Part shown: positions 45,897-63,400 of the stretch, piece by piece | Layout of the letters: every line of letters starts with the position of its first letter | How positions within the stretch are numbered: position 1 is the stretch's first letter | Assembly (NCBI RefSeq): GCF_000027125.1 | Contig: NC_017626.1 | Origin: Escherichia coli 042 | Lineage (GTDB): Bacteria; Pseudomonadota; Gammaproteobacteria; Enterobacterales; Enterobacteriaceae | Direction: 5' to 3' (one strand) | Length of the DNA stretch: 64,000 bases | Notes under the pieces: model-generated | What the model saw: only the letters and a program-made list of their open reading frames with translations | Databases searched by the model: none | What the model was told of the DNA's origin: nothing | Translations under genes and position numbers: made by a program

Positions 45897-47579
45897 TTAT
45901 TTCGCTTCGCTTAGTGCTTTCTTGATATTGTTAAACTTCTCCTGATTTACCTCGCTAAGCGGTGGCTGGCTGCTGTCGATAAACTCTCTTACCACGCCTT
46001 GCATCTCTTTAACGACCTGTGGATTGGCGGCGGCAAGGTTATCTTTTTGCTGTAGATCCGTCAGTTTGTATAGACCTAACTGATTGTTTTCTACTGTATA
46101 GACAAGCGAATAATCGTTATTTCTCACCGTATAAGAGAATTGGCTTAAGTCCTCGGTATTGGGGTTATGCGGGTAATCGTCTGACTGATGGCGGACAAAT
46201 TTGTGGTAATTATCCCAGAATGGAATATTTTCCTCGTCAAACCAGTGAGAATAAGAGGTTATCCAGGTCAGATTTTTATGTGGCTCGCCTTGTTTCTTAT
46301 CTTGCAACCACGGCAGCAAGGAAACGCCATCCAGCTTAAGGTCTTTTGGAATGCTGATATCGGCTGCATCAAGAGCTGTCGGGTAGAAATCCATTGCGGA
46401 AATCAGCTTGTCATAATTACCTGGTTGAAGTTTTCCTTTCCACCACATAAACATTGGGGTGTGAGTACCGCCAGGATAAGTCTGACTCTTATAGCCTTTT
46501 TGCGCCCCGTTCAGCGGCAGAGGACCATCGATAACCGCACCATTATCGGAGGTAAAGAGAATAATAGTATTGTCATACTGTCCGTTTTTCTTCAGTTGTT
46601 CGAGAATGCGTTTTACACCCTGATCAACAGAATAAACGGAAGCGTAGTAGTTATCTGCTGTTTGACTACCGGTATTAAATTGCTTCTGATATTGCTCCGG
46701 TGCAGGATTATCATTTGGCAGGTGCGGAGCATTATAAGCCAGGTAAAGCATAAAAGGCTGGTCAAGTGTTTTGGCACGATCAACAACGCCAATTGCCTCA
46801 TCGGTTAACTGATCGCTGATATAACCTTTTGCGGGGACGCGTTCACGATTTTTGAACAGTGAAGGGGAGTTGTAATATGCCGTTCCTGCAGCGTGGAATC
46901 CCATAAAGTAATCAAAGCCACGGTTTTGAGGTTGCCATTCTTCCGCAGAAAATGTGGTGAAGTTGTCATGATAGTCACGCGTTTGTTTATCTTCCGGTAC
47001 TGGCACATTACTGATTTTTGACAAGTGCCATTTACCTACTGCTGCAGTGTAATAACCATGATTCTGGAATAATTCAGGCAAGAAAGTTTCTGTTAGCGGA
47101 ATACCATCCTGAGCATCGGTATTGGAATAGACACCAAAGCGGGCGGGCGCTCGACCGGTCATTATTGCGGCGCGGGAGGGGCCGGAAACACCGTGCGCCA
47201 CATAGCCGTTAGTAAAACGTACGCCTTCATCCATTAATGAAAGGAGCGTCGGCGTTGATTTTTGCGCAGCTTCAATGGCTTTATCTATCCCTATTTTGTA
47301 GGTATCGACAACTTCACGATTTTCCATTGTTTTTGGGTCAAAAGATTCCTTATCAAAAGGAAGTTGTCCATAACCAAGATCATCCATGGTCAGTACGATA
47401 ATATTTGGCTTTCCTTTGGTACTGTATTCAGTCGGCGTAAAGTCTGAGAAAGCAACGTTTGTTTTGGTTGCTTTCAGCTTTACATCATCTGCCGCATGAG
47501 CAGCAAATGCAGCCATACCAGATGCCAGTATCAAAGATATCGAGGTACTTACGACACTTTTCTTTAATGCAGACTTCAT
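45897..47579 (-). CDS. ydeN: Periplasmic sulfatase (arylsulfatase family)
   Basis: Start at ATG 47577-47579 (MKSALKKSVVSTSISLILASGMAAFAAHA) with GAGGAA RBS; 560 aa; GVSGPSRAAIMTGR active-site segment with Ser in the modified position. Confidence 0.9.
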   Translation of the reverse strand: MKSALKKSVVSTSISLILASGMAAFAAHAADDVKLKATKTNVAFSDFTPTEYSTKGKPNIIVLTMDDLGYGQLPFDKESFDPKTMENREVVDTYKIGIDKAIEAAQKSTPTLLSLMDEGVRFTNGYVAHGVSGPSRAAIMTGRAPARFGVYSNTDAQDGIPLTETFLPELFQNHGYYTAAVGKWHLSKISNVPVPEDKQTRDYHDNFTTFSAEEWQPQNRGFDYFMGFHAAGTAYYNSPSLFKNRERVPAKGYISDQLTDEAIGVVDRAKTLDQPFMLYLAYNAPHLPNDNPAPEQYQKQFNTGSQTADNYYASVYSVDQGVKRILEQLKKNGQYDNTIILFTSDNGAVIDGPLPLNGAQKGYKSQTYPGGTHTPMFMWWKGKLQPGNYDKLISAMDFYPTALDAADISIPKDLKLDGVSLLPWLQDKKQGEPHKNLTWITSYSHWFDEENIPFWDNYHKFVRHQSDDYPHNPNTEDLSQFSYTVRNNDYSLVYTVENNQLGLYKLTDLQQKDNLAAANPQVVKEMQGVVREFIDSSQPPLSEVNQEKFNNIKKALSEAK

Positions 47580-47981
47580 AAATGTTCCTCTTCTTATTGT
47601 ACTTAATTCCAAAGTAATTTTACGAAGAGAAATAAGTGAATGTAAGTGAAGTTAGTCACATAAAGAGATAGCAGATTTAGCTAAAAAAAGGGAAATAACA
47701 GTCCATGAAGCGTTGACATTACTTTCTATTCTACTAAGTAATTTCTCGACGATAAACAACTAATCTATTGATATTTAATAAATTATTGTATTTTACTGAC
47801 AAAATGCCGAATTGAGATCATAAATAATCATGCAACAGGTTATGCAAATGCATAAATATGTGATGAATGTCACTTATTTATTTCAATAAATATATCGCCT
47901 AAAAACAACGCGGGGCAGGGAATGGCTGCCCCATTTTAATTTTTACGTAGGGTGCGTGGTTGACTACTCGTTAGCAAATAA

Positions 47982-48743
47982 TCAAATAGCTAAAGCATTC
48001 ATCGTGTTGCCCTTATTCATACCCGTGTGCCTTTGACAACGGTACTCCTTAGAAACTCTCTTTGGACTGTTGCCAAAATGTTTGCGGAACGCATAAATAA
48101 AATAAGATGTACTCGCATAACCACATTGTTCGGCAATTTTATTGACTGAACCTTCTACGCGTATCAAATTTTTTGCGTGCTGCATTCTGGCATCTAAAAG
48201 AATCTGTGAGAATGTCGTTTGCTCTTGCTTTAGTTTTTTCTTCAACAGGCTTTCACTAATGTACAGGCAGTCACAAATATCTTTCAGCTTCCATGGGTGC
48301 GCCAGCTTCATGTTGACAATATTTCTAACTTTCCCAGAAACGGATAGCACACCGTTAGTTAATAGTGTAATGAAACCTTTGCATGCGGCAAAAATAGACA
48401 GGCAAGAAAAAAGCAAAAGTTCTGAAAAATTATGATGATTGCGTTCTTCCGAGTTGAGATAAGCAATCATTTCATTAAGCAATCCAGTCGGTACATTTGA
48501 AGCACGTAAAAACTTCGCAGGAACAGGCACCGTCACTGTCTGGATGTTAGTGCATTGTAGATATTTTTTAATGGTATTTTCATTAAATCCGATTTCTTTG
48601 AAATGCCGCTCATAAGGTTCAAAATGCGTACGAACAGCGTTATCTACCATCAGGATCTCGCCGTCAGAGAAGGCGTAATCTTTATCTAAAATGTTAGCGT
48701 TGAAGGCATGATGAATAAATATAACAGAACAAACGAGCGACAT
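47982..48743 (-). CDS. ydeO: AraC-family acid-resistance regulator
   Basis: 253 aa with C-terminal AraC HTH (…QCGYASTSYFIYAFRKHFGNSPKR); downstream of safA. Confidence 0.9.
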   Translation of the reverse strand: MSLVCSVIFIHHAFNANILDKDYAFSDGEILMVDNAVRTHFEPYERHFKEIGFNENTIKKYLQCTNIQTVTVPVPAKFLRASNVPTGLLNEMIAYLNSEERNHHNFSELLLFSCLSIFAACKGFITLLTNGVLSVSGKVRNIVNMKLAHPWKLKDICDCLYISESLLKKKLKQEQTTFSQILLDARMQHAKNLIRVEGSVNKIAEQCGYASTSYFIYAFRKHFGNSPKRVSKEYRCQRHTGMNKGNTMNALAI

Positions 48744-48817
48744 TTTATCTCCTTAAAACAATAAAGTTTTTATCGATACTTTTTTAACATTTCACATTTA
48801 TAATTTGCTGTTTATTT

Positions 48818-49015
48818 TCAGTCTTGCAAACTATTGATAATGAAATGTGTAAGATCCCTTGCAATGCGACCCATTTCTGAAATACCCAGCTGATCAATTG
48901 CCGAAAACATGGCTATCAACGTAAGTGTCAGTAATAAGACAACCACAATTACAGACATGATTTCTTTATAGTTGTCTCTTTGCGTGATTTTGTTTTTCAC
49001 TGTGGTCGCATGCAT
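48818..49015 (-). CDS. safA: Small membrane protein linking EvgS/EvgA to PhoQ
   Basis: 65 aa, MHATTVKNKITQRDNYKEIMSVIVVVLLLTLTLIAMFSAIDQ, single TM helix. Confidence 0.85.
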   Translation of the reverse strand: MHATTVKNKITQRDNYKEIMSVIVVVLLLTLTLIAMFSAIDQLGISEMGRIARDLTHFIINSLQD

Positions 49016-49126
49016 TTCAAATATGTTTATTTAGCGGATAACGTTAAAAATCGTTAATCAGTATGCTTAATATAACAGGCTGGAGAATAGAGGAAATAGG
49101 ACTGGCGCTTCAGTACTGAGCGGAGT

Positions 49127-49142
49127 TTCTTACAGCTGTAGG
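49127..49142. promoter_or_regulatory. Candidate EvgA box upstream of safA
   Basis: TTCTTACAGCTGTAGG, an imperfect inverted repeat within a longer block shared with the ydeP upstream region; 112 bp upstream of the safA start. Confidence 0.5.
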
Positions 49143-49262
49143 CGGAGGTATATATCTTATAACGAGCAGTTTAATTTAGCACATGTGAGTAAATTGCGCG
49201 ACAATGGTCAATGAGGAATTCTTCTGCTGTGCGGATGACAGCAGAAGAAATGAGGAGGCGAA

Positions 49263-51542
49263 TTAATTTGATGGTTCTAATTCAACCGGAATACTTTTAT
49301 AGCCAGGAATGCCACTTAATGGATCGTGGTTATCAAGTGTTAGCATGTGATTCGATTCTGGAAAATAGGTCACCAGTGAGCGGTCAGCCATAGGGTAAAT
49401 GACCACTTTTAATCTATCCATGCGGCGTGAGCTTCGCTTACCGTCTGGCGTAAGCGCAATAAGATTAACTCTTTCGCCGTTTTTTACACGGCAAATTTTA
49501 GCTTGTTTAGCACTCATAAAGACCACATCTCGTTGACCGAATACCCCTCGATAGCGATCATCCATACCATAAATCGTCGTGTTGTACTGATCGTGACTGC
49601 GTACTGTCGCCATGACTAGCTTACTGTTAAACGCTGAAGAGGGATCTTCTAACAGCCCTTTACTGGTAATGAAATTAGCCTTACCTGACGGCGTCATCCA
49701 GCGCCTTTCAGCAGCTGCATTTATCAGGTGAAAACCACCGGGATGACGGATGCGCTGGTTATAGTCGGCGAACTCTGGCAGCACAGCTTCAATGTCATTG
49801 CGAATGCGATCATAATCTTCCACCAGATACTCCCAGGCTACCACGCTCTGGGGTAGTGCAGCCTGCGCGATTCCCGCGACCACTGCACACTCTGATTTCA
49901 GCATTACACCGGCGGGTTTTAACACGCCACGCGAGGCATGAATCATCGACATTGAATCCTCAACGGTTACCGCCTGCGCACCACTTTTTTGCATGTCAAT
50001 CTCGCTACGTCCCAGAACCGGCAGAATATAGCTATGCTGTGCGGTCAGCAGATGAGAGCGGTTAAGCTTAGTGGCTACGTGTACCGCCAAATCTAATTGC
50101 GTTAACGGTACAGCGCTCGCTTCCCGATCTGGCATTGCCAGTGCAAAGTTGCCCCCCATGCAGATCAATGCTCGAGCCTGCCCCGTACATATTGCTTGCA
50201 TGCTGGCAATTGCAGCATGTCCAGGTGCATGAGGTGGGGTGAAACCATAGCGCTCACCCAGGCGAGCCAGAAACTCTGCAGACGGTTTCTCGGTGATACC
50301 GACGGTTCGGTCGCCCTGTACATTAGAGTGACCACGTAGTGGGCAGATACCTGCACCAGGCTTGCCAATGTTACCTTTCATCAACAGCAGATTGACCAGT
50401 TGCTGTACGTTTTGGGTACCATGTTCGTGCTGAGTGATCCCCATTCCGTAACAGATAATGGTGCGTTCGGCAGCGGCATATGCATCAGCCAGTTCGGCGA
50501 TTTGGGTCTGACTTAGTCCAGAAATACGTTCGATATCTTTCCACTCGGAATTGAGAACGTCACGGCGTAGCTCGTCAAAGCCGACGGTATGCGTTTGAAT
50601 AAATTCGTCATCCAGCAATGAGGGCCGACCTGCGGCGCTTGCAGCATCATCGCGCTCAATTAACAGGCGCATCATCCCCTTGAGCAACGCCATATCGCCA
50701 CCAATGCGCACGTTATAGTAGGCACTGGCCAACTGAGTCTCAGAGTTCGTCAGCATTTCAAACGGATTTTGCGGTGCGGTAAATCGCTCCAGGCCACGTT
50801 CCTGTAGAGGGTTGATGGCGATCATTTTCGCTCCCCGTTTCACTAAAGCGCGCAACGAAGTCAGCATGCGAGGGTGGTTTGTACCAGGGTTATGCCCAAT
50901 GCAAATGACTAAATCGCATTTCTCAAAGTCTTCCAGCAACACGGTGCCTTTACCCACACCGATACTCGCTGCCAAACCCACGCTGGTCGGTTCATGGCAC
51001 ATGTTGGAACAGTCGGGAAAGTTATTGCTCCCGTATTCACGGGCAAAAAGCTGATAAAGAAAGGCAGCTTCATTGGAAGTGCGCCCCGAAGTATAGAATT
51101 CAACCTGATTGGGATCACTATAGCTTTGAAGGCGTGCGCCTATTTCGTCGAAAGCTTGTTGCCAGCTTAATGGCTTGTAACAGTCGCTGACGGCATCATA
51201 TTTCAAAGGCTGAGTGAGACGCCCCGCAGCTTCAAGCTCGTGATCTCCCCAGGTAAGTAATGATTGAACCGTATTCTCAGCAAAGAAAGAGGCATTTACC
51301 TGCTTATCCGTGACTTCCCAGGCGATTGCTTTTGCGCCGTTTTCACAAATGTCGAATGACGCACTGTGCTTAGGATCTGGCCATGCACATCCAGGACAGT
51401 CAAAGCCCTCTGGCTTATTCATGTCAAACATGGCAATAACATCCTGGCGTATATCCATCTGCTTACGTACTGCATTCGCTACGGATTTAACAGCACCCCA
51501 ACCACCGGCAGCACCCTGGTAGGATTCAATTTTTTTCTTCAT
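49263..51542 (-). CDS. ydeP: Molybdopterin oxidoreductase family protein (FdhF-like), acid-resistance associated
   Basis: 759 aa, [20 protein letters not shown]; N-terminal Cys cluster (CPGCAW) and molybdopterin-binding domains. Confidence 0.9.
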
Positions 51543-51790
51543 CTGCTTATCCTGTGTGGAAATGAATTATTAGGATTTGTAATAGCGATGATGCACAGTA
51601 TATACAAAGGGATTATCGTCAATATGGATATATAAGAGTAGGGGACTACTCTCTATCTATTTTTAACCTATTATCGTTAAATAATAGAATGGTATAAATA
51701 CGATAAGTTAAGCATCATCTCTCATAGTGTTTAAATTAACATATTTTTCAATATAAAAAATAAGACTCTGGCTTCAATTGTGCGCGGATT

Positions 51791-51806
51791 TTCTTACAGG
51801 TGTAGG
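51791..51806. promoter_or_regulatory. Candidate EvgA box upstream of ydeP
   Basis: TTCTTACAGGTGTAGG, same motif as upstream of safA, with conserved flanks (GCGGAtTTTCTTACAGgTGTAGG). Confidence 0.5.
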
Positions 51807-51880
51807 ATAATAGCCTTCACAAAATAATTATCCGCGCAATTTCCGTGAATGGAGCGCATAGACTAAGATCAAAATCACAA

Positions 51881-52795
51881 TTATTCATAGATAAAAGTGA
51901 CACCAATGACTGACTGGACGGTTCCGGCTGAAACCTTGTTTCCTGTTTGTCCATAGGTTGCGCTTAAACCCAGAGGTACTTTGCTTTTATTTACTGTCCC
52001 CAGGGAGACATTTTCTCCCGTAGCCAGTATTTTTCCATTACGCATCAGAGAGACACCCACTCCCGATGCTTTTGTCGCATCAGGTGCTGTGTTAGCAAAC
52101 ACTTGTCGGGCACTGTCAGTGGTGGCACCCGAAAGATAAAATGAGAGCTTTTGTTCGCTTGAGCAATATACGCCAAGGGGTATTTCTGCGCTTCCAGGAA
52201 AGTCCGGGAGATTCACGGTGACATTACGACTATCAACAGTGCAGCCGCCTGTTGGCATAACAACACTGTTATTTGAAATAATATTCCACGTAAAATTACG
52301 CGGATTTCCGCTTCCTAACGTGGCAATTTTATACATATGAATACGGGCAATGACTTCCCCCGCTTTTATGACAACTCCACCGGCTGCACCAACTGGGGTA
52401 ATATAGAGTTTTAACGGTAATGGCATCGGTGTCTTATCACCAATATCCAATACGTTGGTATTTGTCGTCAACGGGAAGGGGTAGGTTACATTATTCCAGT
52501 ACAGCGATCCTTTATATGACTGTAGGGAGCCTGCGAAAGCTGAGCCTTGTACCAGGTTTATATGATCGGTGTCGTACCAGCCGCCGTAATCATTCCAGCA
52601 ACTTATATGCTGAGACAAGTCTACAACCAGATTCTGGCCCGGTTGTATTACAGGGTCGAGATTAACATAAACAGAGGTTGTACCTGCTCCAATACTTGAC
52701 CCGCCATCGACATTACAACTGAAGGCAAAAACTTTGCCTGCCATTAATAGAAGATAAATACCGAACAGGACCTTTATACTGAATGTTTTACCCAT
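51881..52795 (-). CDS. ydeQ: Fimbrial tip adhesin (FimH-like, two-domain)
   Basis: 304 aa with signal peptide [24 protein letters not shown]; last gene of the chaperone-usher operon. Confidence 0.85.
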
Positions 52796-52854
52796 GATAT
52801 ATCCTAAGGTTAAGAAATTGATTTAAAAAGGAGGCTAAGAAAATCGAATCGACG

Positions 52855-53358
52855 TTATTGCCAGGTGTAGATCACATTGATTAGCGCCTCGATCGTTCCC
52901 TGGCTTGCATTTCCATTCACCGTGATAGCTCTTGCCTTAAGTGGAAACTGTGCATTACGAGTGATCTCATCAACAATAACCGTTTTGCTATCGCCATTTT
53001 TTAACGTCGCATCCTGGTCATCCCTCAGCTCTATCTGAATATTTTCGGCACTACCTTCATTTTTGTAATAACCCGTATTGTCAGTTGAACCTGTCACGAT
53101 TGCCGTCACTGCACTTGTTTCAACCGGACAATCGGTTAATGACAAAGTAATATTGTGCCAGCCAGATGCAGAGCCAGGTTGTTGCAGATTGCGTGTATAA
53201 AGATCCCCGAGATTAACGTTAGCTTCTTTGGTTTGAATAGTGCAGGGTTTAGCGACTACCCGACCATTAACAGTGATAGTGACATCGGCGGCCTGGAGAG
53301 TTGCTGTGAATAACGCGCAAAACGTAGCTAACAGGAACCTCTTGTGAAGTCTTTTCAT
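52855..53358 (-). CDS. ydeR: Minor fimbrial subunit (FimG-like)
   Basis: 167 aa, signal peptide, pilin-fold minor subunit. Confidence 0.85.
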   Translation of the reverse strand: MKRLHKRFLLATFCALFTATLQAADVTITVNGRVVAKPCTIQTKEANVNLGDLYTRNLQQPGSASGWHNITLSLTDCPVETSAVTAIVTGSTDNTGYYKNEGSAENIQIELRDDQDATLKNGDSKTVIVDEITRNAQFPLKARAITVNGNASQGTIEALINVIYTWQ

Positions 53359-53370
53359 ATCTGACTCTGA

Positions 53371-53901
53371 TTATTGAAATTCAAGGGTAAAGGTTGCCGA
53401 AGCCCTCACCAGTCCCGGATTGACGGACTTCTGAGTTGACTTCAGACGAGCGGAGTAAGGCAAAATATTGTTCTGTTCTGGTACCAGTGGGATCCACTGC
53501 ATCCCGGCATGAAGGTCATTCAATTTCACCGGACGCATATTTCCGTCCAGTATTTCTATACCCAAACCGGAGGCCGTATTGCTTCCTTCATCCAGTTTCA
53601 ACAGAGTATTATTTTCTGCATCCTCAATACCGTTAAATGCAACTCGAACCCCCGTTGTCCCTTTGCTGCATTCACTTAACGTAATCTGAAAAGGGACGGC
53701 TGGACTTGTGCTACCGGTCGTTGGAAATTGTCTGGCACTGTTTTTTTGGAGATCTACGGTAAAATTAAGCGAATCCGATGAGACTGTGCAGCCATAATCG
53801 AGGACGCGCCCGCTAATTTTAATAACGCTATCTGCGGATAAAGCAGAATAGGTGGTTAACCCCAGACATAAACCGAGGAAAATAATGTTATTGTATTTCA
53901 T
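53371..53901 (-). CDS. ydeS: Minor fimbrial subunit (FimF-like)
   Basis: 176 aa, signal peptide MKYNNIIFLGLCLGLTTYSALSA. Confidence 0.85.
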   Translation of the reverse strand: MKYNNIIFLGLCLGLTTYSALSADSVIKISGRVLDYGCTVSSDSLNFTVDLQKNSARQFPTTGSTSPAVPFQITLSECSKGTTGVRVAFNGIEDAENNTLLKLDEGSNTASGLGIEILDGNMRPVKLNDLHAGMQWIPLVPEQNNILPYSARLKSTQKSVNPGLVRASATFTLEFQ

Positions 53902-53914
53902 AATCTCTTGTTCC

Positions 53915-56530
53915 TTAGCGACAGATTGCTGTCTGCTGGTTCAGTAAGGTTCCAGGAGAGACTTCAGGAAGCTTGTAATCGACTATACAGTTTGAGTTTT
54001 TATCATTGCCCCATGAAACCTGTAATTTCCCTGACTGTGGAAGTCCAGTCAGATAAACCTGACCGTTTTCTGCGACAATGCTGCCATTTTTATTCTCTCC
54101 GTGTGTGACAATTGCACCGAATGGAACGCTCTTATTACCGTACTTCAACGTCATTAATACTTTCCCGCCGATTTGTGCATTAAATGTTGCTCTGGCAATA
54201 GCACCGTGAGTTGGGATGACAGTGACTACGGTTTCATCCAGTTCAACATTATCTGCAAGGGAATTCGCGTTAAGAGCGACACGATTTTCTCTATATTCTG
54301 TCGCAAATGGTAATATGGCATAGCCACGCCAGTCGGTATGAATTCCGGTCTGGTTCTCTATTTTGACATTATCAGCGCCAGGAGCCTTAACCAGAACCAT
54401 TGTGTCGCCCAGCGGCTGTCCAAAGGTGATGCCATCAGCATGAGCAATAATCCCACCACTCATTCCGTAATAAATCTGGCTGCTGTCACCACTCCGACTG
54501 TAACCGACATTCGTATTACCGTAAGCTCCACGATAATTAAGAGAACTGTAACCACTGGTGCCAGACGATGTATTACCTCCGTGGGTGTTACCGACCTGAA
54601 CGCTATAATTCAGGTTATTATCCGGCAGCAGAGTGCCATAAACTCCCGATAGATTGGTCATGCCACCTTTCAAATCGTTTGACATACTGTAACTGGCGTT
54701 TGAATTACGAAATGCCGACTGACTGTCTGTACGCATCCAATGACTGAAGGGAACATTAAGCGTAAAAGCGAGTAAATGATCCCGATCGTTTTGCCATATA
54801 TTATTGGAATAGCTGTAATTCAGCGAAGTCGTAATATCACCAAACGGCACATTTAATCCAAATGATATTTGCTGGTCGCTGCGTGACGTGTTCCAGTAAC
54901 TTTGGCGACTGGCACTGAAAAATGTCGTACCGTAATTTCCAAGCTGCTGAGAGATGCTTATTTGTTCCTGACCACGCTTACTGTAGAACAGATTAAAATA
55001 ATCAATAAATTGTGTCTGCTCATTGGTGTCTCCGGTAGGAGGCTTGACGGTGTAACCACTCATTCGACTGTAGGCACTGTCGGATAAGTTATAAAAACCT
55101 TGCGTAGAATAGCGATATCCTGCGACCTGGATATTGGTTCCTGTCTGGTAGAAGGATTTGCTGTAGACGGATTTAACCGATTGCCCGCTGTGACGGGTGT
55201 CATCTGCAAGCGTCGTATTGGCTTGCGTGATATCGAAAGAAAAGGCACCAAACAGTCCCAAATCTTTACCAATACCAAGGTTGAAGGCCTGATAATTTTC
55301 TGCAATTTGCATTCCGCCATAAGGTGTCCAGTTTCCTTCCAGTCCATGCATCAAGCTACCTTGTATGAACTTGGGAGAGCTTTGCAGGTTATTTCCACTA
55401 CGATATTCCCCCATGGCAAGCGCATAACGCGTATATCCAGCACGTTGGAGAACCGGAACAGACGAATAAGGAACATATAATGTCTGAATACTGCCGTCTG
55501 CCTCTTTTATGGTTACTTGCAGATCACCACCATTGGCCGCAGAGTTGATATCATCAATAGTAAAAGGGCCGGGTGGGACAGTAGTCTGATAAACATCGTA
55601 TCCATTCTGTTTTACACTCACTTGTGCGGTGCCGCGGGCAATACCATGAATCACCGGAGCGAAACCATGTTGGCTATCGGGCAACATCGCTTCTGTTGAA
55701 TTTATTTTGAGGCCACGAAAGTTCACACTATCAAAAATATCGCCATCGGTATAACTATCACCTACCGTTAAGCGTGAGCGTAAGGGAATAATGTCACGTT
55801 CAGCCGACGTATTGATATGCTGCCATTTATTGCTGTCAGATGAATTGCTACTCCCACTGTTATAACTCCACGTTGAGTTATCGCGCAGTCGCCAACTACC
55901 AATGTTGATGCCACTCTGTAAATTCAAATATGCATAGTTGGATTTTCCTGCATTATGGTTACTACGATTATTAATAGAATTACCATTAAAACTATAGTTT
56001 AGAAGCCCAGCATTTATTCCTTCTTCCCACAGATCAGGAGAAACATAGCCGCGAGCCATTCTGCCAACATAAATTTGCGGAACGGAGAGTGACAGATGTT
56101 GCTGACCAACATCAAACTCAGTTGATGCGTCGGCCAAACGATCCTGAAGTGGTGTGCATGTGCTGTTGTCCGGCACATGTTTTTCTGCCGAATGTTCCTT
56201 ATTGTCCAATAACGCAGATTTTTTTATGCCAAGACTGACAAGAAGCTCTGTACTCAGGCATGGGATGAGATCTGCGTTATTATCATCTGCAATAAAAGTA
56301 ATATCCCGACTAGTCATAAATTCGTCGTTCAAATAAATGTCGACCCGATATGTACCAGGTGGTGCCTCGCGTCCCTTAGTAAAGGCGGATAAATCGACAG
56401 ATTCAGCAAGATCATTGCTTAAAAACCGTGGATTAAAATAATACTCTGCGTCAACGGGAAAAACCGCAGTTGCTAAGCCAAGGGCAATGGTAAGCCGTGC
56501 AAAGCGAGGCAGTAGTAACACCTGATGCAT
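53915..56530 (-). CDS. ydeT: Fimbrial outer-membrane usher (FimD-like), full length
   Basis: Track ORF starts at 56566; likely start ATG 56528-56530 (MHQVLLLPRFARLTIALGLATAVFPVDAEYYFNPRFL). Long FimD-like segments such as TVPPGPFTIDDIN...GDLQVTIKEADGS. Confidence 0.85.
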   Translation of the reverse strand: MHQVLLLPRFARLTIALGLATAVFPVDAEYYFNPRFLSNDLAESVDLSAFTKGREAPPGTYRVDIYLNDEFMTSRDITFIADDNNADLIPCLSTELLVSLGIKKSALLDNKEHSAEKHVPDNSTCTPLQDRLADASTEFDVGQQHLSLSVPQIYVGRMARGYVSPDLWEEGINAGLLNYSFNGNSINNRSNHNAGKSNYAYLNLQSGINIGSWRLRDNSTWSYNSGSSNSSDSNKWQHINTSAERDIIPLRSRLTVGDSYTDGDIFDSVNFRGLKINSTEAMLPDSQHGFAPVIHGIARGTAQVSVKQNGYDVYQTTVPPGPFTIDDINSAANGGDLQVTIKEADGSIQTLYVPYSSVPVLQRAGYTRYALAMGEYRSGNNLQSSPKFIQGSLMHGLEGNWTPYGGMQIAENYQAFNLGIGKDLGLFGAFSFDITQANTTLADDTRHSGQSVKSVYSKSFYQTGTNIQVAGYRYSTQGFYNLSDSAYSRMSGYTVKPPTGDTNEQTQFIDYFNLFYSKRGQEQISISQQLGNYGTTFFSASRQSYWNTSRSDQQISFGLNVPFGDITTSLNYSYSNNIWQNDRDHLLAFTLNVPFSHWMRTDSQSAFRNSNASYSMSNDLKGGMTNLSGVYGTLLPDNNLNYSVQVGNTHGGNTSSGTSGYSSLNYRGAYGNTNVGYSRSGDSSQIYYGMSGGIIAHADGITFGQPLGDTMVLVKAPGADNVKIENQTGIHTDWRGYAILPFATEYRENRVALNANSLADNVELDETVVTVIPTHGAIARATFNAQIGGKVLMTLKYGNKSVPFGAIVTHGENKNGSIVAENGQVYLTGLPQSGKLQVSWGNDKNSNCIVDYKLPEVSPGTLLNQQTAICR

Positions 56531-56607
56531 ACGATATGCCTTAAATGCGGCACGAAAGGCTGTCATTATTTATTCCGATTGAGTTTATTATTAATTAGGT
56601 CACTGGC

Positions 56608-57327
56608 TTACTGCATGGTTGCCTTAATACGCGGAGTTAATGCACCGTAATCATTGATCGTCTGAAAACTGATATCCCCGGTTGCAGCATGCGGGATATC
56701 CACCGATACTTCACCTTTTGGCGGCACCATGGTGTTTGGGAGATTGCTATTTCCTGCTTTCATATTTGTTACGGTAATGAAGTAGGGCGTTGGATTAATA
56801 AGAGTGAGTTTGCTACCGCTGCGACGAAACCGAAGCATTGCTGGCGCTTCTTCAGGTGCCATTGCCAGGTTAGTGGGGCGATAAAACATTTTTATGCGGC
56901 TAATAATTGCCAGCTGTAATGTATTCTCATTCTTCTGGTCTTTTTCCATAGCAGGAATAGCTTTAACATTAACCCAGAACAGGCTTTCACGGTCGCCTGG
57001 TAACTGATGATTAGTGGCGTTGATTATCCGCAGCGTATTCTCTTTTTTACCTTGCATGGAAAAAAGCGGTGGAGTAATGACAAACTGGGTGTCTTTTTGG
57101 TCACCTGCATTTTCTATCCATGACTGAATGAGATAGACACTGGCAGGATCATTATTCGTGACAGGCAATAAAACCTGTTTCTGGTTTGCCGGATAAATTA
57201 CCCGCGTCGCACCCAGTGCGACAGCTGCGTTGGCAACGGTGCTATGGCAAGCAAAGAGCAATAAAAGTAACACTGTCGCCATAAAGGAAATAGAGTAGGG
57301 GGTACGCGTAGTTTGCATCTGATGCAT
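56608..57327 (-). CDS. Periplasmic fimbrial chaperone (FimC-like)
   Basis: 239 aa with signal peptide and PapD-like fold; start may be one of the internal ATGs. Confidence 0.8.
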   Translation of the reverse strand: MHQMQTTRTPYSISFMATVLLLLLFACHSTVANAAVALGATRVIYPANQKQVLLPVTNNDPASVYLIQSWIENAGDQKDTQFVITPPLFSMQGKKENTLRIINATNHQLPGDRESLFWVNVKAIPAMEKDQKNENTLQLAIISRIKMFYRPTNLAMAPEEAPAMLRFRRSGSKLTLINPTPYFITVTNMKAGNSNLPNTMVPPKGEVSVDIPHAATGDISFQTINDYGALTPRIKATMQ

Positions 57328-57678
57328 TCTCCATGTGTTAAGAGGATAAGCGGGAAAACCGTTACATCAGACAATCGATAAATGTTGCTAATACATTGGC
57401 GAGTCGCCGGGTTTCCAGACTTAATGCGTTTGTAATAAATGTTGGTTCTCTTTTAATAGGAAAACCTTGCTACAAAGTAAATATTTTAAATAACAGTAAG
57501 TTTAACTACTGTTGTTTATTGATCGTTTAGATATTATGTGATTTTTCATAGTGCTCCAAATACAAACCATTCCTCATTAATAATGAGATTCACATTGGCG
57601 AATTGCTCGGGTGTGCGTAGCCATGCCACACACACCCTGTTTCAATTTCAGATGACGTATAGCCACCTTAAGATTGAA

Positions 57679-58242
57679 TTATAGATATTGAACTTTGAAG
57701 GTCGCATCAGCGTTTGCAGTACCAGCTACTGACTGCCCGAGAGCAATATAACGAGCCTGGAATGGCAGTATATTCGTGCCATCAATCAAGTCGGTTTTAG
57801 CGCTAAAAGTGCCACCATCAAGTATTAATACCTCCCCCGTACGGTCCAAAATTTGAATACCAACATTTTGGGCAGAGCCTGCCGCTGAACTCTGCAGCGC
57901 TAAGGTATCGTCATTACTGGTGACAGTAGTACCCAGGAATGCAACAGCTGCATTACTGGAAACATTGGTATCACAATCATTCAGCTTGATATTGAAGCCA
58001 ACGGCGGAGCTGAGGTCACCCGCTTTAGCCAGACGAGAAGAGCGAACCTGACCCAGCTCAACCGTTTGGTTCATTGATTCTGAATCAATCGCACAAGCGG
58101 CATTTACCACTTCACCTTTAAAATGAATAACACCGCCATTAACAGTGGTCGTTACTGATTCATCACCCTCGGCTGCGCTTACCGCAGCAGACGACATCGC
58201 CAACACAGAAACGACAATCATACCGACATGTTTGAGTTTCAT
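57679..58242 (-). CDS. Major fimbrial subunit (FimA-like pilin)
   Basis: Start at ATG 58240-58242 ([23 protein letters not shown]) with GGAGAA RBS; 187 aa ending ...DATFKVQYL. Confidence 0.8.
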
Positions 58243-58675
58243 AATTCTCCAAAATTTATATTTAAGTAGCTGAATAAAGAGAGTTAACAATTAAGTCATT
58301 CTGTTATTGCTTATAAAACAAGAATCATTCTTGATGGGATATTGCCCTGAAAATATAGTTTCCAGGGTTATTACATTTCACGAAGAACGATAATATCTTT
58401 AAATTACAAGGACACCTAATCACAACAAGTTTATTGCAGCACTTGTTGTAGAGAGTAGTTGCAAAAACATTTTATGTCGCTAAATAACATGACGATTTCA
58501 TTATGCATGATGTTTATAAACAGCGACTAAACAGAATATTATTGCGAACAAGGGAAGTGTCAGGAAAGGTCAAGAGCGACTAATGGTTTATATGGCTATA
58601 AATTATTAGCTATGGTTAATGTTTGCATGGTGAAACTAACGCCGAAATGCTCTAACCAGATAAGTGCAGGGTTTA

Positions 58676-58930
58676 TTAAAGCTGACCAAGAGGCTTTCTT
58701 AATTTAGTAATATCTCTCTTAGGTGGCTCTCCAAATATCCGCGAATATTCCCGACTGAAATGAGATAAGCTTTCGTAACCGACAGCATAGGCTGCAGTGG
58801 TGACATCGTAATGTTCATTCAGCATCAGTCGCCTGGCTTCACTGAGGCGTAGCCATTTCTGATACCGGAGTGGACTCATTCCCGCAAGCTGTCTGAAGTG
58901 TTGATGGAAAGAGGGTGTGTTCATTTGCAC
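58676..58930 (-). pseudogene. yneL: AraC-family regulator, C-terminal HTH fragment only
   Basis: 84-aa ORF covering only the second HTH of an AraC/XylS domain (…GMSPLRYQKWLRLSEARRLML…SLSHFSREYSRIFGEPP); no room upstream for an N-terminal domain before hipA. Confidence 0.6.
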
Positions 58931-59211
58931 GCGGTTTGCCAGCCTGACTCTTCAACGCAGGGAAGATGCGGCAAACGGCAAACCTGCATACCAGCCAGCC
59001 TATATCCGGTATGCACAGGCCAATTATGAAAGAGGAGAGGCTTTATGTTCTGGAACCCTGAAGTAATAACGACGACCGGAAAATCGCTTCGCATCACTCA
59101 AATTCCATTTAACATAATATACATTATGCGCACTAATATAAACCAAGGGAGAATCCAGTCGTTGGCGGTCATGATTGTCCTGCTCATTAACAACGACCAA
59201 AACCCCATATC

Positions 59212-60478
59212 TTACTTAATACCGTATTCTCGGCTTAACCGGCCGTGCAACCTCAACACATTGGTTTCAACTGCCGTCACCACGTTCTCCGGAAAATCTG
59301 TCGGTAATGAAGTCTTCACGTTATCCAGTGCTGCCGGAATCATTCTGGCAAAGTCACTCAGGATTTCATGCATCTGCACTTCCGGAAATTTCAGCAACTT
59401 TGCTGTCGCCAGAAAATGTCGCGGATAAATTTTATCGATTGCCGTTTTTTTGCCTTTGGATGCGTTAAGCCCCATTGCCAGTTTGAGATCGCTGATGTGT
59501 ATTCCTGCGCCACCCAATACCGGAAATGCTGAAATGATGTCGTAAAATGGCGTGAGTCGATAACTGCCGCCAGCCTGAATAAATACGGAGAAGTTTTTTG
59601 CATGGCCATCCGTTGCGCCAATCAACCACTGGAACACCTGAAACTTCATAAAATCATAGCGATCTTTCAGCGCCTCGCTGGACCCCATCAAAAAAGCCAT
59701 GATCCGCGCGATGCCTGGGCCTCCATCTGATTCATATTTCACCGATGAAGTTAAACCGAATGTCTGACACATATCCTCCTGTGGCAAGCGAAGTAAAACC
59801 GTTCGCTCAGCATTCCAACGCCTGTCAAAACGTTCGACCGCTAACGCGCGCACATTCCCCGCTTTAATGATTTCTGCGTCCGGCACATTCAACCCAAGTT
59901 CTTTCGCCAGCAGCAGACAGTAATACTCATTATCAACGCTTTGGCTGAGATCGAGCGTCGCATTGGGCTGCCTGATTTCGCCAATCGGTAATTTAATGAT
60001 GTGCGTCGTCGGCGTTATTCCTTTCGGAATGCACCAGTCATTGCCTATTCTGAGCAGCGCTGTCTTCTCCTGCGCGCCAGCAACCGAGATGCGAAAGTCA
60101 TTTTCTTCTCTAATCATGCCCAGAGGGATATCTGCTTTATAAGCCGTTAATACTTCTTCAAGTCTGGCTTCAGTAAGCTTTTCCCATGCCATTATCGGAT
60201 GCGTTACGGTTTCGTCTTCGGGTATTAACGTCACGGCACCAACGCTGTCTCGCCCTATTTCTGACAATAAATCAAACGGTTGTCTGGATTTGGCATGATA
60301 ACGTTTAACGATCCGGTCACGTACAATCGGGCTATCGGGTAACAGATTATCGAAGAAGTTAAATACGGCATCAGAGGTGATATTCCCCCTCTGCAATGGC
60401 AGCGAAAGTGACAACGGTCTGGCATAACGGCTGGCTAACCACTCCGGTGCATACTTAAAGGTGTGCGCGCCGTTGGCT
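59212..60478 (-). pseudogene. hipA: hipA toxin kinase remnant, 5'-truncated, no hipB
   Basis: HipA-type sequence from about residue 19 (LANGAHTFKYAPEWLASRYARPLSLSLPLQRGNITSDAVFNFF...) to the stop at 59212. An in-frame TGA lies three codons upstream of the first homologous codon. No hipB, promoter or RBS upstream. Confidence 0.75.
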
Positions 60479-63400
60479 AGCGAGAATCATAGTCGTCAGC
60501 AGAACGGTTATCGGAACTGACGCTGTTATCAAACCAGTTATACAGCGCCCAGCTGTCAACATAAGCGCCGGTCTTATTCGCATCGTTCTGATACCAGGTC
60601 GCGTACAGTCCTGCGCTGTAACCGCTGATGCGCCCATCCGATTTATAACCCACACGATTACTCTGAGTATTACTGTGCTGATTGGCGTAGCCTGCCATCA
60701 CGCCAAGATGCCAGCGATCCTGCGCGTTGCTACTCCACTGCGCCAAATCGCCTCCTAGCTGCAATACATAGCGGTTAGCCTGAGTATTTAGCTGGCCGTC
60801 ACCGGTCCTGAAACGTTCGTGCCCCCCGACATGACGCATCCACATACTGCTTGCCGAACCCTGAGAATGCAGTGAATCTGTATACTGCGGCTCACCCAGA
60901 CGGTCGTGTAAGCGATGGCTAAACAGCGAGTTGGCTGCGGCAATGTTGCTGATATAGCTTCCGGCCTCCGGGCGATAAACTGATGGGCCTTCCGGATCCA
61001 CAACAGGGGGATTATTGATGGGATCGGGTGTATCCGGTGGCGTTACGCCTTCCCATTTACTGGTCAGATACCAGTTTTTCTCGTCATTCCCCTTCCCTTT
61101 AGCCAGCGTGTAGACGTAAGCCCCAGCTTCGACAGTTCCGGTGGTCAGCGCGAAGTTACCTGCAGAATTACCGCCAACCTCAATGAGTTCAATACCGTTG
61201 ACCGTTTGTGCACCGACGCCGCCAATGTTATCAACCCGAACGCGAGTGTTCCCTTGGGTATCGCCTTTCACGTTCATCTTATCGGTGGGCGAATTATCGC
61301 CGCCCAGCGTCGCGTTGAACGTCATCAGGCCATTGTTTCCGTTATAGTTACCGTTAACGGTCAGTACATTCCCCGGTTTCCCCCCTTCGCTGTTCATTTG
61401 AACCGTGCCACCATTCTCCAGGTTACCGCCGACAGTGGTTTTAGCGACACGCAGTGTCCCCCCTGGCATAACGTTCACATCACCTGCAGTGGTGACATTT
61501 CCCGACATCACACCGCTGTTATGGATATTAATGTGCTGACTTGCCATATTAATGGCAGAGTCGGAACCGAAAGCAATTTCACCACCCACGATATCCGTCG
61601 TACCCTGATACGCCGCGGAATCGTTGTTAAGAGTCAGGATCCCGGTACCCAGTTTTGTCACATCACCGCTACCGCTGATACTGTGCGTCATCGCCCAGCT
61701 ACGCTCAGTGGAGATGGTGAGCAGGCCATTATTGATAACGGAAGCATCACCCAGGTTTTTCTGCTCGTTGACGCTGAGCGCGCTGCCTGTATCAATGTTG
61801 AATTGCCCCACAAAGCGGCTATTATCGCCATCCAGCTCTACATCTGTCCTGGCGGTTGCGCTCACGATACCCTTCCCGCTTATGCTATTACGCAGTTCTC
61901 CAGTCACGTTTTTTAGCGTTAACAGACCGTCATTGGCAATATTTCCTCTGCCTAACCCCTGCGTATTATCGAGGCTGACTTCCGCATTTGGGCTAATGCT
62001 GGTTAACGCATTGTAGCGTGCATTAAGCCCCTCGATAGCCAGTGTTCCCCCTGTAACATTCAGGTTTCCGCCACCTGTCAGTTCACCCTGACTGATCCCA
62101 CCTTTATTTACCGTGAGCGCCCCCTCTTTGAACAAAACAGTCGAACCCATCTGCCCGGTGAATGTCTCTACCGTCTGCGTCGATCCATTAAGATCGACGA
62201 TGGCCGCGTTGCTGATGTTCAGTTCCCGGGTGTTGCCAAGTGCACCATCCGCATCGGTACGTAATGTCCCCATCTGAACGTAGGTTGCCCCCTGATAGTC
62301 GTTCTGACCGTTGGAAAGCGAAACCTGTCGTACCGTATTGATTGCCAGATCCCCTTCACCACCGATTTTTGCCGACATATCGGCTGTTGCGCCATAGGCT
62401 CCGCCATGTTCGGCTAACGTCAGCTTTTGCCCACCATGGATGTTCAGCGCTTTCAGCCCATAGTTAACGTACAAACCATCACCTGGTGCGGTCGTGAGGC
62501 GGAATCCATAATCACCCTCGGCGACCACTGTTCCGTTTTGTGCAATGTGTAACTTTTTGTCCGCTTCCACCGCGTCGCCCTGTAAATCACGTAACGTTAA
62601 TGAGCCACCCGATCCAATAACCGTTTGCGCCTTCACCAGTTGAACGCCGACATGGCTATCATCGTGTTCCAGCAAATTGAGCGTCGTCAGAGGGTTATTC
62701 GCCATGGGATCATTCCACGGTTTAGGCACGTCGATAAGCACGTCGCCCATCCCGTTTACCTGATAGTTACGGCCTTTCCAGGTGTAGTCACCCGTGCCGA
62801 CAACCAGCGTATCGACGCTGATATATCCCTCCGCAAGCGTCGCAGCAGGTATATCCGTATCGAAAGTGAGCGTACCGCCATTCATGGCTAGTCCACCAAT
62901 GGATTGCTCTCCCACTTTTACCGATGTGGTATTTTCACTGTCAGACTGAAGCATCGCGTGAGTAAGCGCAGCGGTGTTGTCGCGTTCCAGTGTGAAGGTA
63001 CTGTCTTTCAGTTGGGCAACACCGGCGAATTCAGTTCCTGTTGCATGGGTAAAGCCAAACATTTTGTCGGAGGATGACAGCTGCACTCGCATCAAGCCAT
63101 CGCCTTTGAGCGCATTGGTCAGCGTGTAATCTCCTGCACTGTTCGTTGATGCGAGAATGTCGAGCGTACCGGGGCTTGCAATGGTTACTTCACTCGAACC
63201 CATGCCTGTTACCCCATCTGCCGTATGTGACGCAATAGTCAGGAGGCCGTCATTGACCAGCGTTTTACCACTATAAGTATTCCCTGCATTGAACACCGTA
63301 TGGCCTGCATCATGCATCACTTTTCCGTCTTTATCGTCACCCGTAATCAGCATATCGACCTGGTAGCCGGCATCACTGTTATTAGTATGATTAAAGACAA

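Follow-up and report, generated by a model that had tools for sequence, protein, structure and literature searches.

A complete chaperone-usher operon of Escherichia coli 042 identified as the F9 (Fml) pilus locus

The six minus-strand genes at 51881-58242 of the window, the 64,000-nucleotide stretch of Escherichia coli 042 DNA that was analyzed, are almost certainly an intact copy, in the ancestral state, of the F9 (Fml, or "yde") chaperone-usher pilus operon of E. coli. This identification follows from the position of the genes between ydeP and hipA, which matches the published layout, from the six-gene order with full-length products, and from a lectin domain that is the same as the FmlH crystal chains and retains every ligand-contact residue. 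It also follows from promoter hexamers, a spacer, and a start site equal to those mapped by 5′-RACE in CFT073, from a nucleotide identity of 95-99% with this locus across 5,325 E. coli records, and from a low dN/dS ratio together with the occurrence of the exact usher protein in public assemblies. No observation speaks against it. The identity of the operon was already known, and the finding is correct and ordinary, F9/Fml being well studied. A preliminary description of this DNA had reported a complete, type-1-like chaperone-usher operon, which is borne out by six minus-strand open reading frames (ORFs) free of stops and frameshifts, and had advised comparison with described E. coli chaperone-usher operons, which leads to the published F9 (Fml) operon (PMC3966885, PMC5866590). 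The other checks proposed at the same time, namely modelling of the lectin pocket, tests of temperature and of hns, and electron microscopy, have likewise been published for the F9 operon.

Gene Content and Products

The operon is flanked on its 3′ side by ydeP (49263-51542) and on its 5′ side by hipA sequence (59215-60480; listed ORF 59212-60414), the position at which the F9 locus has been mapped (Figure 1, PMC3966885). Its order of major pilin, chaperone, usher, two minor pilins, and adhesin is that of the published F9 operon (PMC3966885). The features of the chaperone-usher pathway are all found, namely a PapD-like chaperone, a three-domain usher, and Fimbrial-family pilins with signal peptides, and each of the six genes has the length annotated in RefSeq for strains KE55 and JSWP006.

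The major pilin (57679-58242, minus strand; 187 aa from the ATG at 58242) is the F9 major subunit, a homologue of CFT073 c1936. Its gene is preceded by a GGAG ribosome-binding site, and the protein scores 172.5 bits against the NCBIfam FimA model (cut-off 140) and differs from its counterparts by no residue in KE55 and by one in JSWP006. A longer, TTG-started version of this ORF reaching 58290 is a listing artefact. The periplasmic PapD-like chaperone (minus strand) extends from 56608 to 57327, giving 239 aa from the first ATG, or to 57318, giving 236 aa from the ATG used in RefSeq; it differs by 0-4 aa from the reference strains, and PapD_N and PapD_C are matched on the identical chaperone gene in strain L005. 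The outer-membrane usher (53915-56566, minus strand; 883 aa, or 871 aa if translation starts at the second Met) contains PapC_N (43-195), Usher (213-795), and PapC_C (804-868), each at full model length. Its best profile matches are FimD-type models, NF011740 (990.3 bits, just under the 995-bit equivalog cut-off) and NF011745 (857 bits), and the top NCBIfam match of the chaperone is FimC at 259 bits, under the 327-bit equivalog cut-off; the models missed by these two proteins are Fim/Salmonella-type rather than F9 models. In the scheme of Nuccio and Baumler, ushers that cluster phylogenetically with FimD-type ushers form the gamma-1 clade.

Downstream on the minus strand lie a FimF-like adaptor minor pilin (ydeS; 53371-53901, 176 aa), which scores 239 bits against NCBIfam FimF (cut-off 200) and is identical to the KE55 and JSWP006 proteins, and a FimG-like minor pilin (ydeR; 52855-53358, 167 aa), which scores 255.9 bits against NCBIfam FimG (cut-off 220) and differs by 1-3 aa from the reference strains. 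The last gene (ydeQ; 51881-52795, minus strand, 304 aa) encodes the tip adhesin FmlH. A hydrophobic N-terminal leader ending in a small-x-small cleavage motif can be read in each product, in agreement with the earlier claim of a signal peptide on every component.

By analogy with the known Fim and Pap pathways, Sec would export all six products, after which the PapD-like chaperone would fold and cap each pilin through donor-strand complementation. The usher would then polymerize the subunits by donor-strand exchange, beginning with FmlH at the tip, followed by the FimG-like and FimF-like pilins and then by the major-subunit rod.

Promoter, Leader, and Intergenic Sequences

In CFT073, the F9 promoter was located by 5′-RACE and consists of a TAGTCG -35 element, an 18-bp spacer, a CATAAT -10 element, and a start G lying 251 nt ahead of the ATG (PMC3966885). 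The window has exactly these hexamers, spacer length, and start site on the minus strand (58493-58529), with the -35 element at 58529-58524, the -10 element at 58505-58500, and the start G at 58493. The -10 element and the start G are invariant in five strains, and the -35 element is identical in four of the five, being TAGTCA in K-12; two substitutions in the spacer are specific to the window. A generic promoter and terminator scan, which yielded no more hits than shuffled sequence did, missed this promoter because its -35 element is weak, and in the same scan neither fmlA nor fmlH was followed by a canonical minus-strand terminator.

Between the promoter and the pilin gene lies an AT-rich 5′ leader of approximately 250 nt (58243-58492, minus strand), the region bound by H-NS in CFT073, which contains a 9-bp inverted repeat at 58422-58449. 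The G+C content is 32.6% in the upstream sequence 58243-58675, 44.2% in the operon, and 47.7% in the window. Silencing of H-NS type had been suggested from this AT-richness, and for the F9 locus it has been demonstrated: a 251-bp promoter fragment is bound by H-NS in gel-shift assays, and F9 is repressed by H-NS at 37°C and expressed at 20°C (PMC3966885). Since the promoter elements are identical, the regulation known from CFT073 can be inferred for the window. A sigma-70 promoter would drive transcription from the G at 58493, and H-NS on the AT-rich promoter and leader would silence F9 at 37°C, with relief at about 20°C.

The short intergenic gaps described earlier hold for four of them (41, 13, 12, and 59 bp) but not for the gap between the pilin and chaperone genes, which is non-coding and measures 351-360 bp (57328-57678 at its shorter reading). 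A tblastn search of this gap with the operon's own pilins returned only noise, and stop codons interrupt all frames with no long ORF, which rules out a degraded fimI-like gene or a small ORF. The gap does contain a hairpin on the minus strand (57609-57637), located about 40 nt past the pilin stop, with a 13-bp stem, a 3-nt loop, and no U tract. The region 57590-57660 folds at -27.4 kcal/mol (z = -3.3), and the stem is invariant in four strains, although conservation of both leader and hairpin was measured within one species of little divergence. The hairpin probably helps to maintain an excess of pilin, as transcript or protein, relative to the downstream genes, perhaps as a partial terminator or mRNA stabilizer. 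An Rfam search of the operon, leader, and gap found no known RNA family; the only hit, a sub-threshold OxyS match within fmlH (23 bits, gathering score 75), is due to chance. It is conceivable, if unlikely, that the leader with its repeat at 58422-58449 and the post-pilin hairpin form an undescribed post-transcriptional layer, such as an RNA thermosensor or a processing or attenuation site. Such a layer would set the pilin:usher stoichiometry atop H-NS control and could partly account for F9 being expressed at low temperature.

Conservation and the Possibility of a Silent Locus

An operon that is intact on paper may still be permanently silent and decaying, contributing no pili in this lineage. 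F9 is repressed in standard culture at 37°C (PMC3966885), and disruption of the locus is common: 3,570 of 5,426 complete E. coli genomes (~66%) hold at least 80% of the operon and the remaining ~34% hold less, the major subunit gene of ATCC 25922 is frameshifted, and the adhesin of L009 is cut to 226 aa. In the window, however, none of the six genes carries a stop or frameshift and the promoter elements are intact. The operon-wide dN/dS is 0.08-0.10, and the lectin domain is unchanged although dS is ~0.09. Moreover, wild-type CFT073 makes F9 pili at 20°C (PMC3966885). A permanently silent locus is thus very unlikely, and an intact F9 operon under temperature-dependent repression is the preferred reading.

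The Adhesin FmlH

FmlH is composed of a signal peptide (1-24), a lectin domain (25-184), and a pilin domain (185-304), and matches the Pfam families FimH_man-bind (PF09160) and Fimbrial. Its mature N-terminus, F25, is residue 1 of the crystallized protein, and residues 25-184 are 100% identical to PDB entries 6AOW and 5LNE. Identity to FimH is 46% for the lectin and 55% for the pilin domain.

The mannose pocket of FimH is formed by F1, N46, D47, D54, Q133, N135, D140, and F142. Four of these eight positions are changed in FmlH (Q133K, N135A, D140N, and F142R; K132, A134, N140, and R142 in FmlH numbering), whereas F1, N46, D47, Y48, and D54 of FimH are kept. The galactoside-pocket residues F1, Y46, D53, K132, N140, and R142 are all found in the window protein, and the identical lectin domain is inhibited by Gal and GalNAc and not by mannose (PMC5866590). 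The F9 pili of CFT073 and UTI89 have been reported to bind Gal(β1-3)GlcNAc/GalNAc glycans. The adhesin of the window is FmlH, by its sequence a Gal/GalNAc lectin with a FimH-like fold and without the specificity of FimH. It would bind terminal Gal or GalNAc, for example in Gal(β1-3)GalNAc, through F1, D53, K132, and N140 and, at the rim, Y46 and R142, and would not bind mannose, as was shown for the identical lectin domain. Its earlier description as a FimH-like two-domain adhesin is therefore right as to fold, but the specificity is not that of FimH.

These properties bear on whether the operon could be a second, mannose-binding and phase-variable type 1 operon, a functional duplicate of fim. 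The top Pfam and NCBIfam matches are indeed FimA, FimC, FimD, FimF, FimG, and FimH_man-bind, the pilin is labelled "fimA" in RefSeq, and the adhesin is 46-55% identical to FimH. Yet half of the mannose-pocket positions are substituted, the inhibition data on the identical lectin domain have already refuted such a role (PMC5866590), and the chromosomal locus is different. The type 1 switch is also missing. No fimB/fimE recombinase ORF lies adjacent to the operon, and no fimI was found between the major pilin and the chaperone, where the 351-bp gap has no significant pilin similarity. The fimS element is an invertible promoter flanked by 9-bp inverted repeats. No fimS-like pair spaced by about 300 bp around the promoter was found, the inverted-repeat search having returned nothing beyond a palindrome, a small hairpin, and a 10-bp pair separated by 542 nt, which rules out an invertible switch of this type. 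A duplicate of fim is accordingly next to impossible, and the operon is better read as F9.

Divergence and Neighboring Loci

An undescribed fimbrial type or a horizontally acquired variant would fit the observation that full-operon identity peaks at 98.4% among 5,426 complete genomes, against 99.8% for the backbone at 22000-44000, with divergence starting near 48200-49700; such an origin is nonetheless exceedingly improbable and a novel or divergent type is ruled out, since the divergence is ~2%, mostly synonymous, and reaches into ydeP, therefore indicating allelic recombination within E. coli, since the proteins differ by only 0-18 residues from known F9 proteins, and since 171 blocks of public assemblies contain the exact usher protein, one assembly being 100% identical over 18 kb.

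Upstream of the operon and outside it, at 58676-58930 on the minus strand, an 84-aa ORF matches only the C-terminal ~70 residues, the HTH part, of AraC-family models. It is annotated in RefSeq as "missing N-terminus" in KE55 and as the pseudogene yneL in K-12, confirming the truncated AraC fragment noted previously. Next door, a deletion of ~1 kb takes hipB, the 5′ end of hipA, and the terminal part of an autotransporter barrel. It is a case in which a well-known toxin-antitoxin module of persistence has been lost in nature.

As a discovery the operon has little value, as F9/Fml pili, the K-12 deletion, the H-NS and temperature control, and the structure, ligands, and inhibitors of FmlH are all published. 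The strain can, however, be scored as F9-intact, a status relevant to chronic urinary tract infection, kidney colonization, low-temperature biofilm, and plant attachment. Automated annotation names F9 genes fimA, fimF, and fimG, a possible source of error in fimbrial typing.

Comparison with Known Systems

The locus and six-gene order of the window are those of F9/Fml as described in CFT073 (c1931-c1936) and UTI89 (fml), with the adhesin FmlH represented by 6AOW and 5LNE, and the protein lengths are identical to those annotated at the F9 loci of KE55 and JSWP006. Relative to F9 in RefSeq complete genomes, the window carries an allelic variant with ~1.6-3% DNA divergence. Its usher differs at 11-18 positions from the three reference strains compared, with E107, T136, N424, N854, and D863 differing from all three, and a few further substitutions fall in the signal peptide and pilin domain of FmlH. 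In contrast to KE55 and JSWP006, the right flank is K-12-like, lacks their ~8-kb island, and has the hipB deletion.

K-12 ydeQRST is a deletion remnant of the F9 operon. K-12 lacks the equivalent of window positions 55142-58420. This 3,279-bp deletion takes out the major pilin and chaperone genes, usher codons 1-475, and 178 bp of leader sequence, just as had been stated earlier for the major subunit, the chaperone, and part of the usher. The right end of this deletion adjoins the leader repeat at 58421. In the remnant ydeQRST-yneL, ydeQ, ydeR, ydeS, and the C-terminal part of the usher are 98-99% identical to the window, and the promoter and first ~70 nt of the leader persist, whereas the window keeps the complete operon.

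With type 1 fimbriae (fimAICDFGH, with fimB/fimE and fimS), the window operon shares the assembly pathway, the subunit roles, and the PF09160 fold family of the two-domain adhesin, and its pilins pass the FimA, FimF, and FimG models at the NCBIfam cut-offs. The two systems differ in specificity, predicted to be Gal/GalNAc for the window adhesin and mannose for type 1, and in control, which depends on H-NS and temperature in F9 and on phase inversion in type 1.

Genes and Products of the Operon

Six consecutive open reading frames (ORFs) lie on the minus strand in the ORF listing of window 49000-62000, and all six are free of internal stop codons. They encode a major pilin (57679-58242, with its ATG at 58242; 187 aa), a chaperone (56608-57327; 239 aa, or 236 aa from the ATG at 57318 used by RefSeq), an usher (53915-56566; 883 aa, or 871 aa from the second Met), two minor pilins (53371-53901, 176 aa; 52855-53358, 167 aa), and an adhesin (51881-52795; 304 aa). 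A TTG at 58290, given as the pilin ORF start, is an artefact of the mechanical ORF list. The lengths of all six genes equal those annotated by RefSeq for the counterparts in strains KE55 and JSWP006. Three subunits pass the cut-offs of NCBIfam models, namely the major pilin for FimA (172.5 bits, cut-off 140), one minor subunit for FimF (239 bits, cut-off 200), and the other for FimG (255.9 bits, cut-off 220). FimC is the top profile match of the chaperone and FimD-type models are those of the usher, which also matches Pfam PapC_N, Usher, and PapC_C, each over the full model length. The adhesin carries the Pfam domains FimH_man-bind and Fimbrial. The uninterrupted six-gene chaperone-usher operon claimed in the preliminary description is borne out by these stop-free ORFs and profile matches, and that reading is supported overall. 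The one exception concerns its short intergenic gaps, which hold for four intervals (41, 13, 12, and 59 bp) and fail for the pilin-chaperone gap of 351-360 bp.

This gap (351 bp from the longer chaperone ORF; 36.5% G+C) is not a decayed fimI, since it has stops in all frames and its similarity to the operon's pilins is not significant. About 40 nt past the pilin stop codon, on the minus strand, lies a hairpin (57609-57637) with a 13-bp stem and a 3-nt loop, which with its flanks folds at -27.4 kcal/mol (z = -3.3) and is invariant in four strains while the rest of the gap varies. No U tract follows the hairpin, a generic terminator scan did not report it, and it has no Rfam match. By analogy with other pilus operons, we infer a putative partial terminator or mRNA-stabilising 3′ structure that would favour the major subunit.

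Identity as the F9/Fml Operon and Its Occurrence

The feature is the F9/Fml pilus operon, intact, already known, and well characterised. It is flanked by ydeP and hipA, with safA and ydeO beyond ydeP, and YdeP scores 1834 bits on its own equivalog model. From residue 25 to residue 184, the adhesin agrees at every position (100% identity) with the FmlH lectin domain solved by crystallography (PDB 6AOW and ten more entries; 5LNE, 5LNG). The residues that contact terminal galactose in FmlH structures (F1, D53, K132, and N140) and those of the rim (Y46 and R142; PMC5866590) are all kept in the window adhesin.

A 7.35-kb megablast query matched the locus in 5,396 of the 5,426 complete E. coli genomes; 3,570 of them (66%) contain 80% or more of the query sequence, which agrees with the published share of intact F9 operons of about 60% (PMC3966885). 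In K-12 MG1655, ydeQ, ydeR, ydeS, and a 382-aa ydeT are followed directly by yneL. By alignment, K-12 is without window 55142-58420 and so has none of the major pilin or the chaperone; codons 1-475 of the usher and 178 bp of leader sequence are gone too, but the promoter survives together with the initial ~70 nt of the leader. The K-12 operon is listed as "disrupted" (PMC3966885), and the preliminary description's statement that this counterpart lacks the major subunit, the chaperone, and part of the usher was correct by both the alignment and the K-12 annotation.

RefSeq/PGAP labels the F9 major subunit "fimA: type 1 fimbrial major subunit FimA" in KE55 (L001), ATCC 25922 (L003), JSWP006 (L004), and other matches, and in some genomes names ydeS and ydeR "fimF" and "fimG". 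F9 paralogues exceed the NCBIfam equivalog cut-offs of 140, 200, and 220 bits, and such labels on F9 genes are a trap for fimbrial typing. In ATCC 25922, a quality-control strain, the major subunit gene is annotated as frameshifted (L003 9081-9643). In LR134246.1 (L009 11772-12452), the annotated adhesin has 226 aa, ydeP is split, and the alignment has five gaps; the short adhesin and split ydeP possibly stem from assembly indels.

Promoter, Leader, and Regulation

The G+C content is 32.6% in the upstream region (58243-58675), 44.2% across the operon, and 47.7% across the window. In strain CFT073, transcription was mapped by 5′-RACE to a start G lying 251 nt before the pilin ATG, with -35 TAGTCG, an 18-bp spacer, and -10 CATAAT ahead of it (PMC3966885). 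On the minus strand of the window, the -35 hexamer is read at 58529-58524, the -10 hexamer 18 bp from it at 58505-58500, and the start G at 58493, which leaves precisely the CFT073 distance of 251 nt to the ATG at 58242. The -10 and start G are unchanged in the window, KE55, ATCC 25922, JSWP006, and K-12, and among these five only K-12 deviates in the -35 (TAGTCA); two spacer substitutions are private to the window. In CFT073, H-NS binds the 251-bp promoter fragment and represses F9 at 37 °C, and F9 pili are found at 20 °C in wild-type cells (PMC3966885). The earlier guess of H-NS silencing was therefore right for an operon in which it had already been demonstrated, and sequence identity suggests that the window allele would be silenced likewise.

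Two 9-bp arms in the leader, ACAACAAGT...ACTTGTTGT, form a perfect inverted repeat around a 10-nt loop (58422-58449, minus strand); the right end of the 3.3-kb K-12 deletion directly adjoins it at 58421. The 9-mer TTAGTCGCT, which includes the -35 hexamer, occurs twice on the minus strand, at 58575-58583 and, 53 bp away, at 58522-58530. Only the window has the upstream copy; the other strains have TTGGCCGCT, TTAGTACCT, or TTGGTAGCT in its place. An inverted-repeat search at the operon found no fimS-like invertible element, and the ORF listing of 49000-62000 contains no recombinase gene next to it.

Flanking Regions and Allelic Divergence

The truncated AraC fragment noticed beside the operon (58676-58930; 84 aa) is confirmed by a match to the C-terminal helix-turn-helix part of AraC-family models only; its counterparts are an N-terminally truncated pseudogene in KE55 and yneL in K-12. 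As in K-12, the fragment is followed directly by hipA, with window 58931-59211 between them. At this site, KE55 and JSWP006 have an ~8-kb island (regions compared: L001 10342-13349, L004 15034-23070) with genes for a carboxymuconolactone decarboxylase, a quinol monooxygenase, aldo/keto reductases, and a LysR regulator, and ATCC 25922 carries a different insert. Farther on, a deletion of about 1 kb has its junction at 60480/60481 (region 60415-60481); its size is 1,026 bp when K-12 is the reference and 987 bp when the nearest relatives (L006, L008, and L009) are. It took away the first 18 codons of hipA, the entire hipB gene and its promoter, and the final ~160 residues of an ECSE_1600-family autotransporter barrel, leaving a hipA remnant (59212-60480) and an autotransporter ORF (60477-63992) that matches profile positions 476-1646 of 1806. 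A TAG stop codon arises at the junction. Across the 5,426 complete E. coli genomes of RefSeq the junction is never contiguous, but the draft assembly GCA_049816985.1 (L005) has it in identical form.

Operon identity reaches at most 98.4% among complete RefSeq genomes, although several genomes attain 99.8% over window 22000-44000. By tiling, the window equals JSWP006 without differences from 44001 to about 48200, and from about 49700 on diverges by roughly 2% from each of the four genomes compared, a difference that continues across ydeP and the fml operon. The recombination boundary lies at about 48200-49700 (safA/ydeP) and the divergent stretch runs to about 58700, with the most mismatches (18-20 per 300 bp) in 58401-58700. 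The differences are chiefly synonymous, with dN/dS of 0.08-0.10 for the concatenated operon. The lectin domain has no substitutions relative to KE55, ATCC 25922, and JSWP006 and one (N177S) relative to K-12, despite a dS of about 0.09-0.10. The pattern is that of common allelic recombination, with purifying selection acting on the genes. An identical usher protein occurs in 171 blocks of public assemblies, and over window 46000-64000 GCA_049816985.1 is 100% identical and three further assemblies are 99.95-99.99% identical.

Relation to Type 1 Fimbriae

In full-length alignment, FmlH and FimH are 46% identical across their lectin domains and 55% identical across their pilin domains. Compared with the pocket residues of FimH structures, FmlH keeps F1, N46, D47, Y48, and D54, whereas Q133, N135, D140, and F142 of FimH are replaced by K132, A134, N140, and R142, and the tyrosine-gate residue Y137 by L136. 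The operon is type 1-like in assembly, yet it stands outside the type 1 system because the identical lectin domain is inhibited by Gal, GalNAc, and the TF disaccharide and not by mannose or glucose (PMC5866590).
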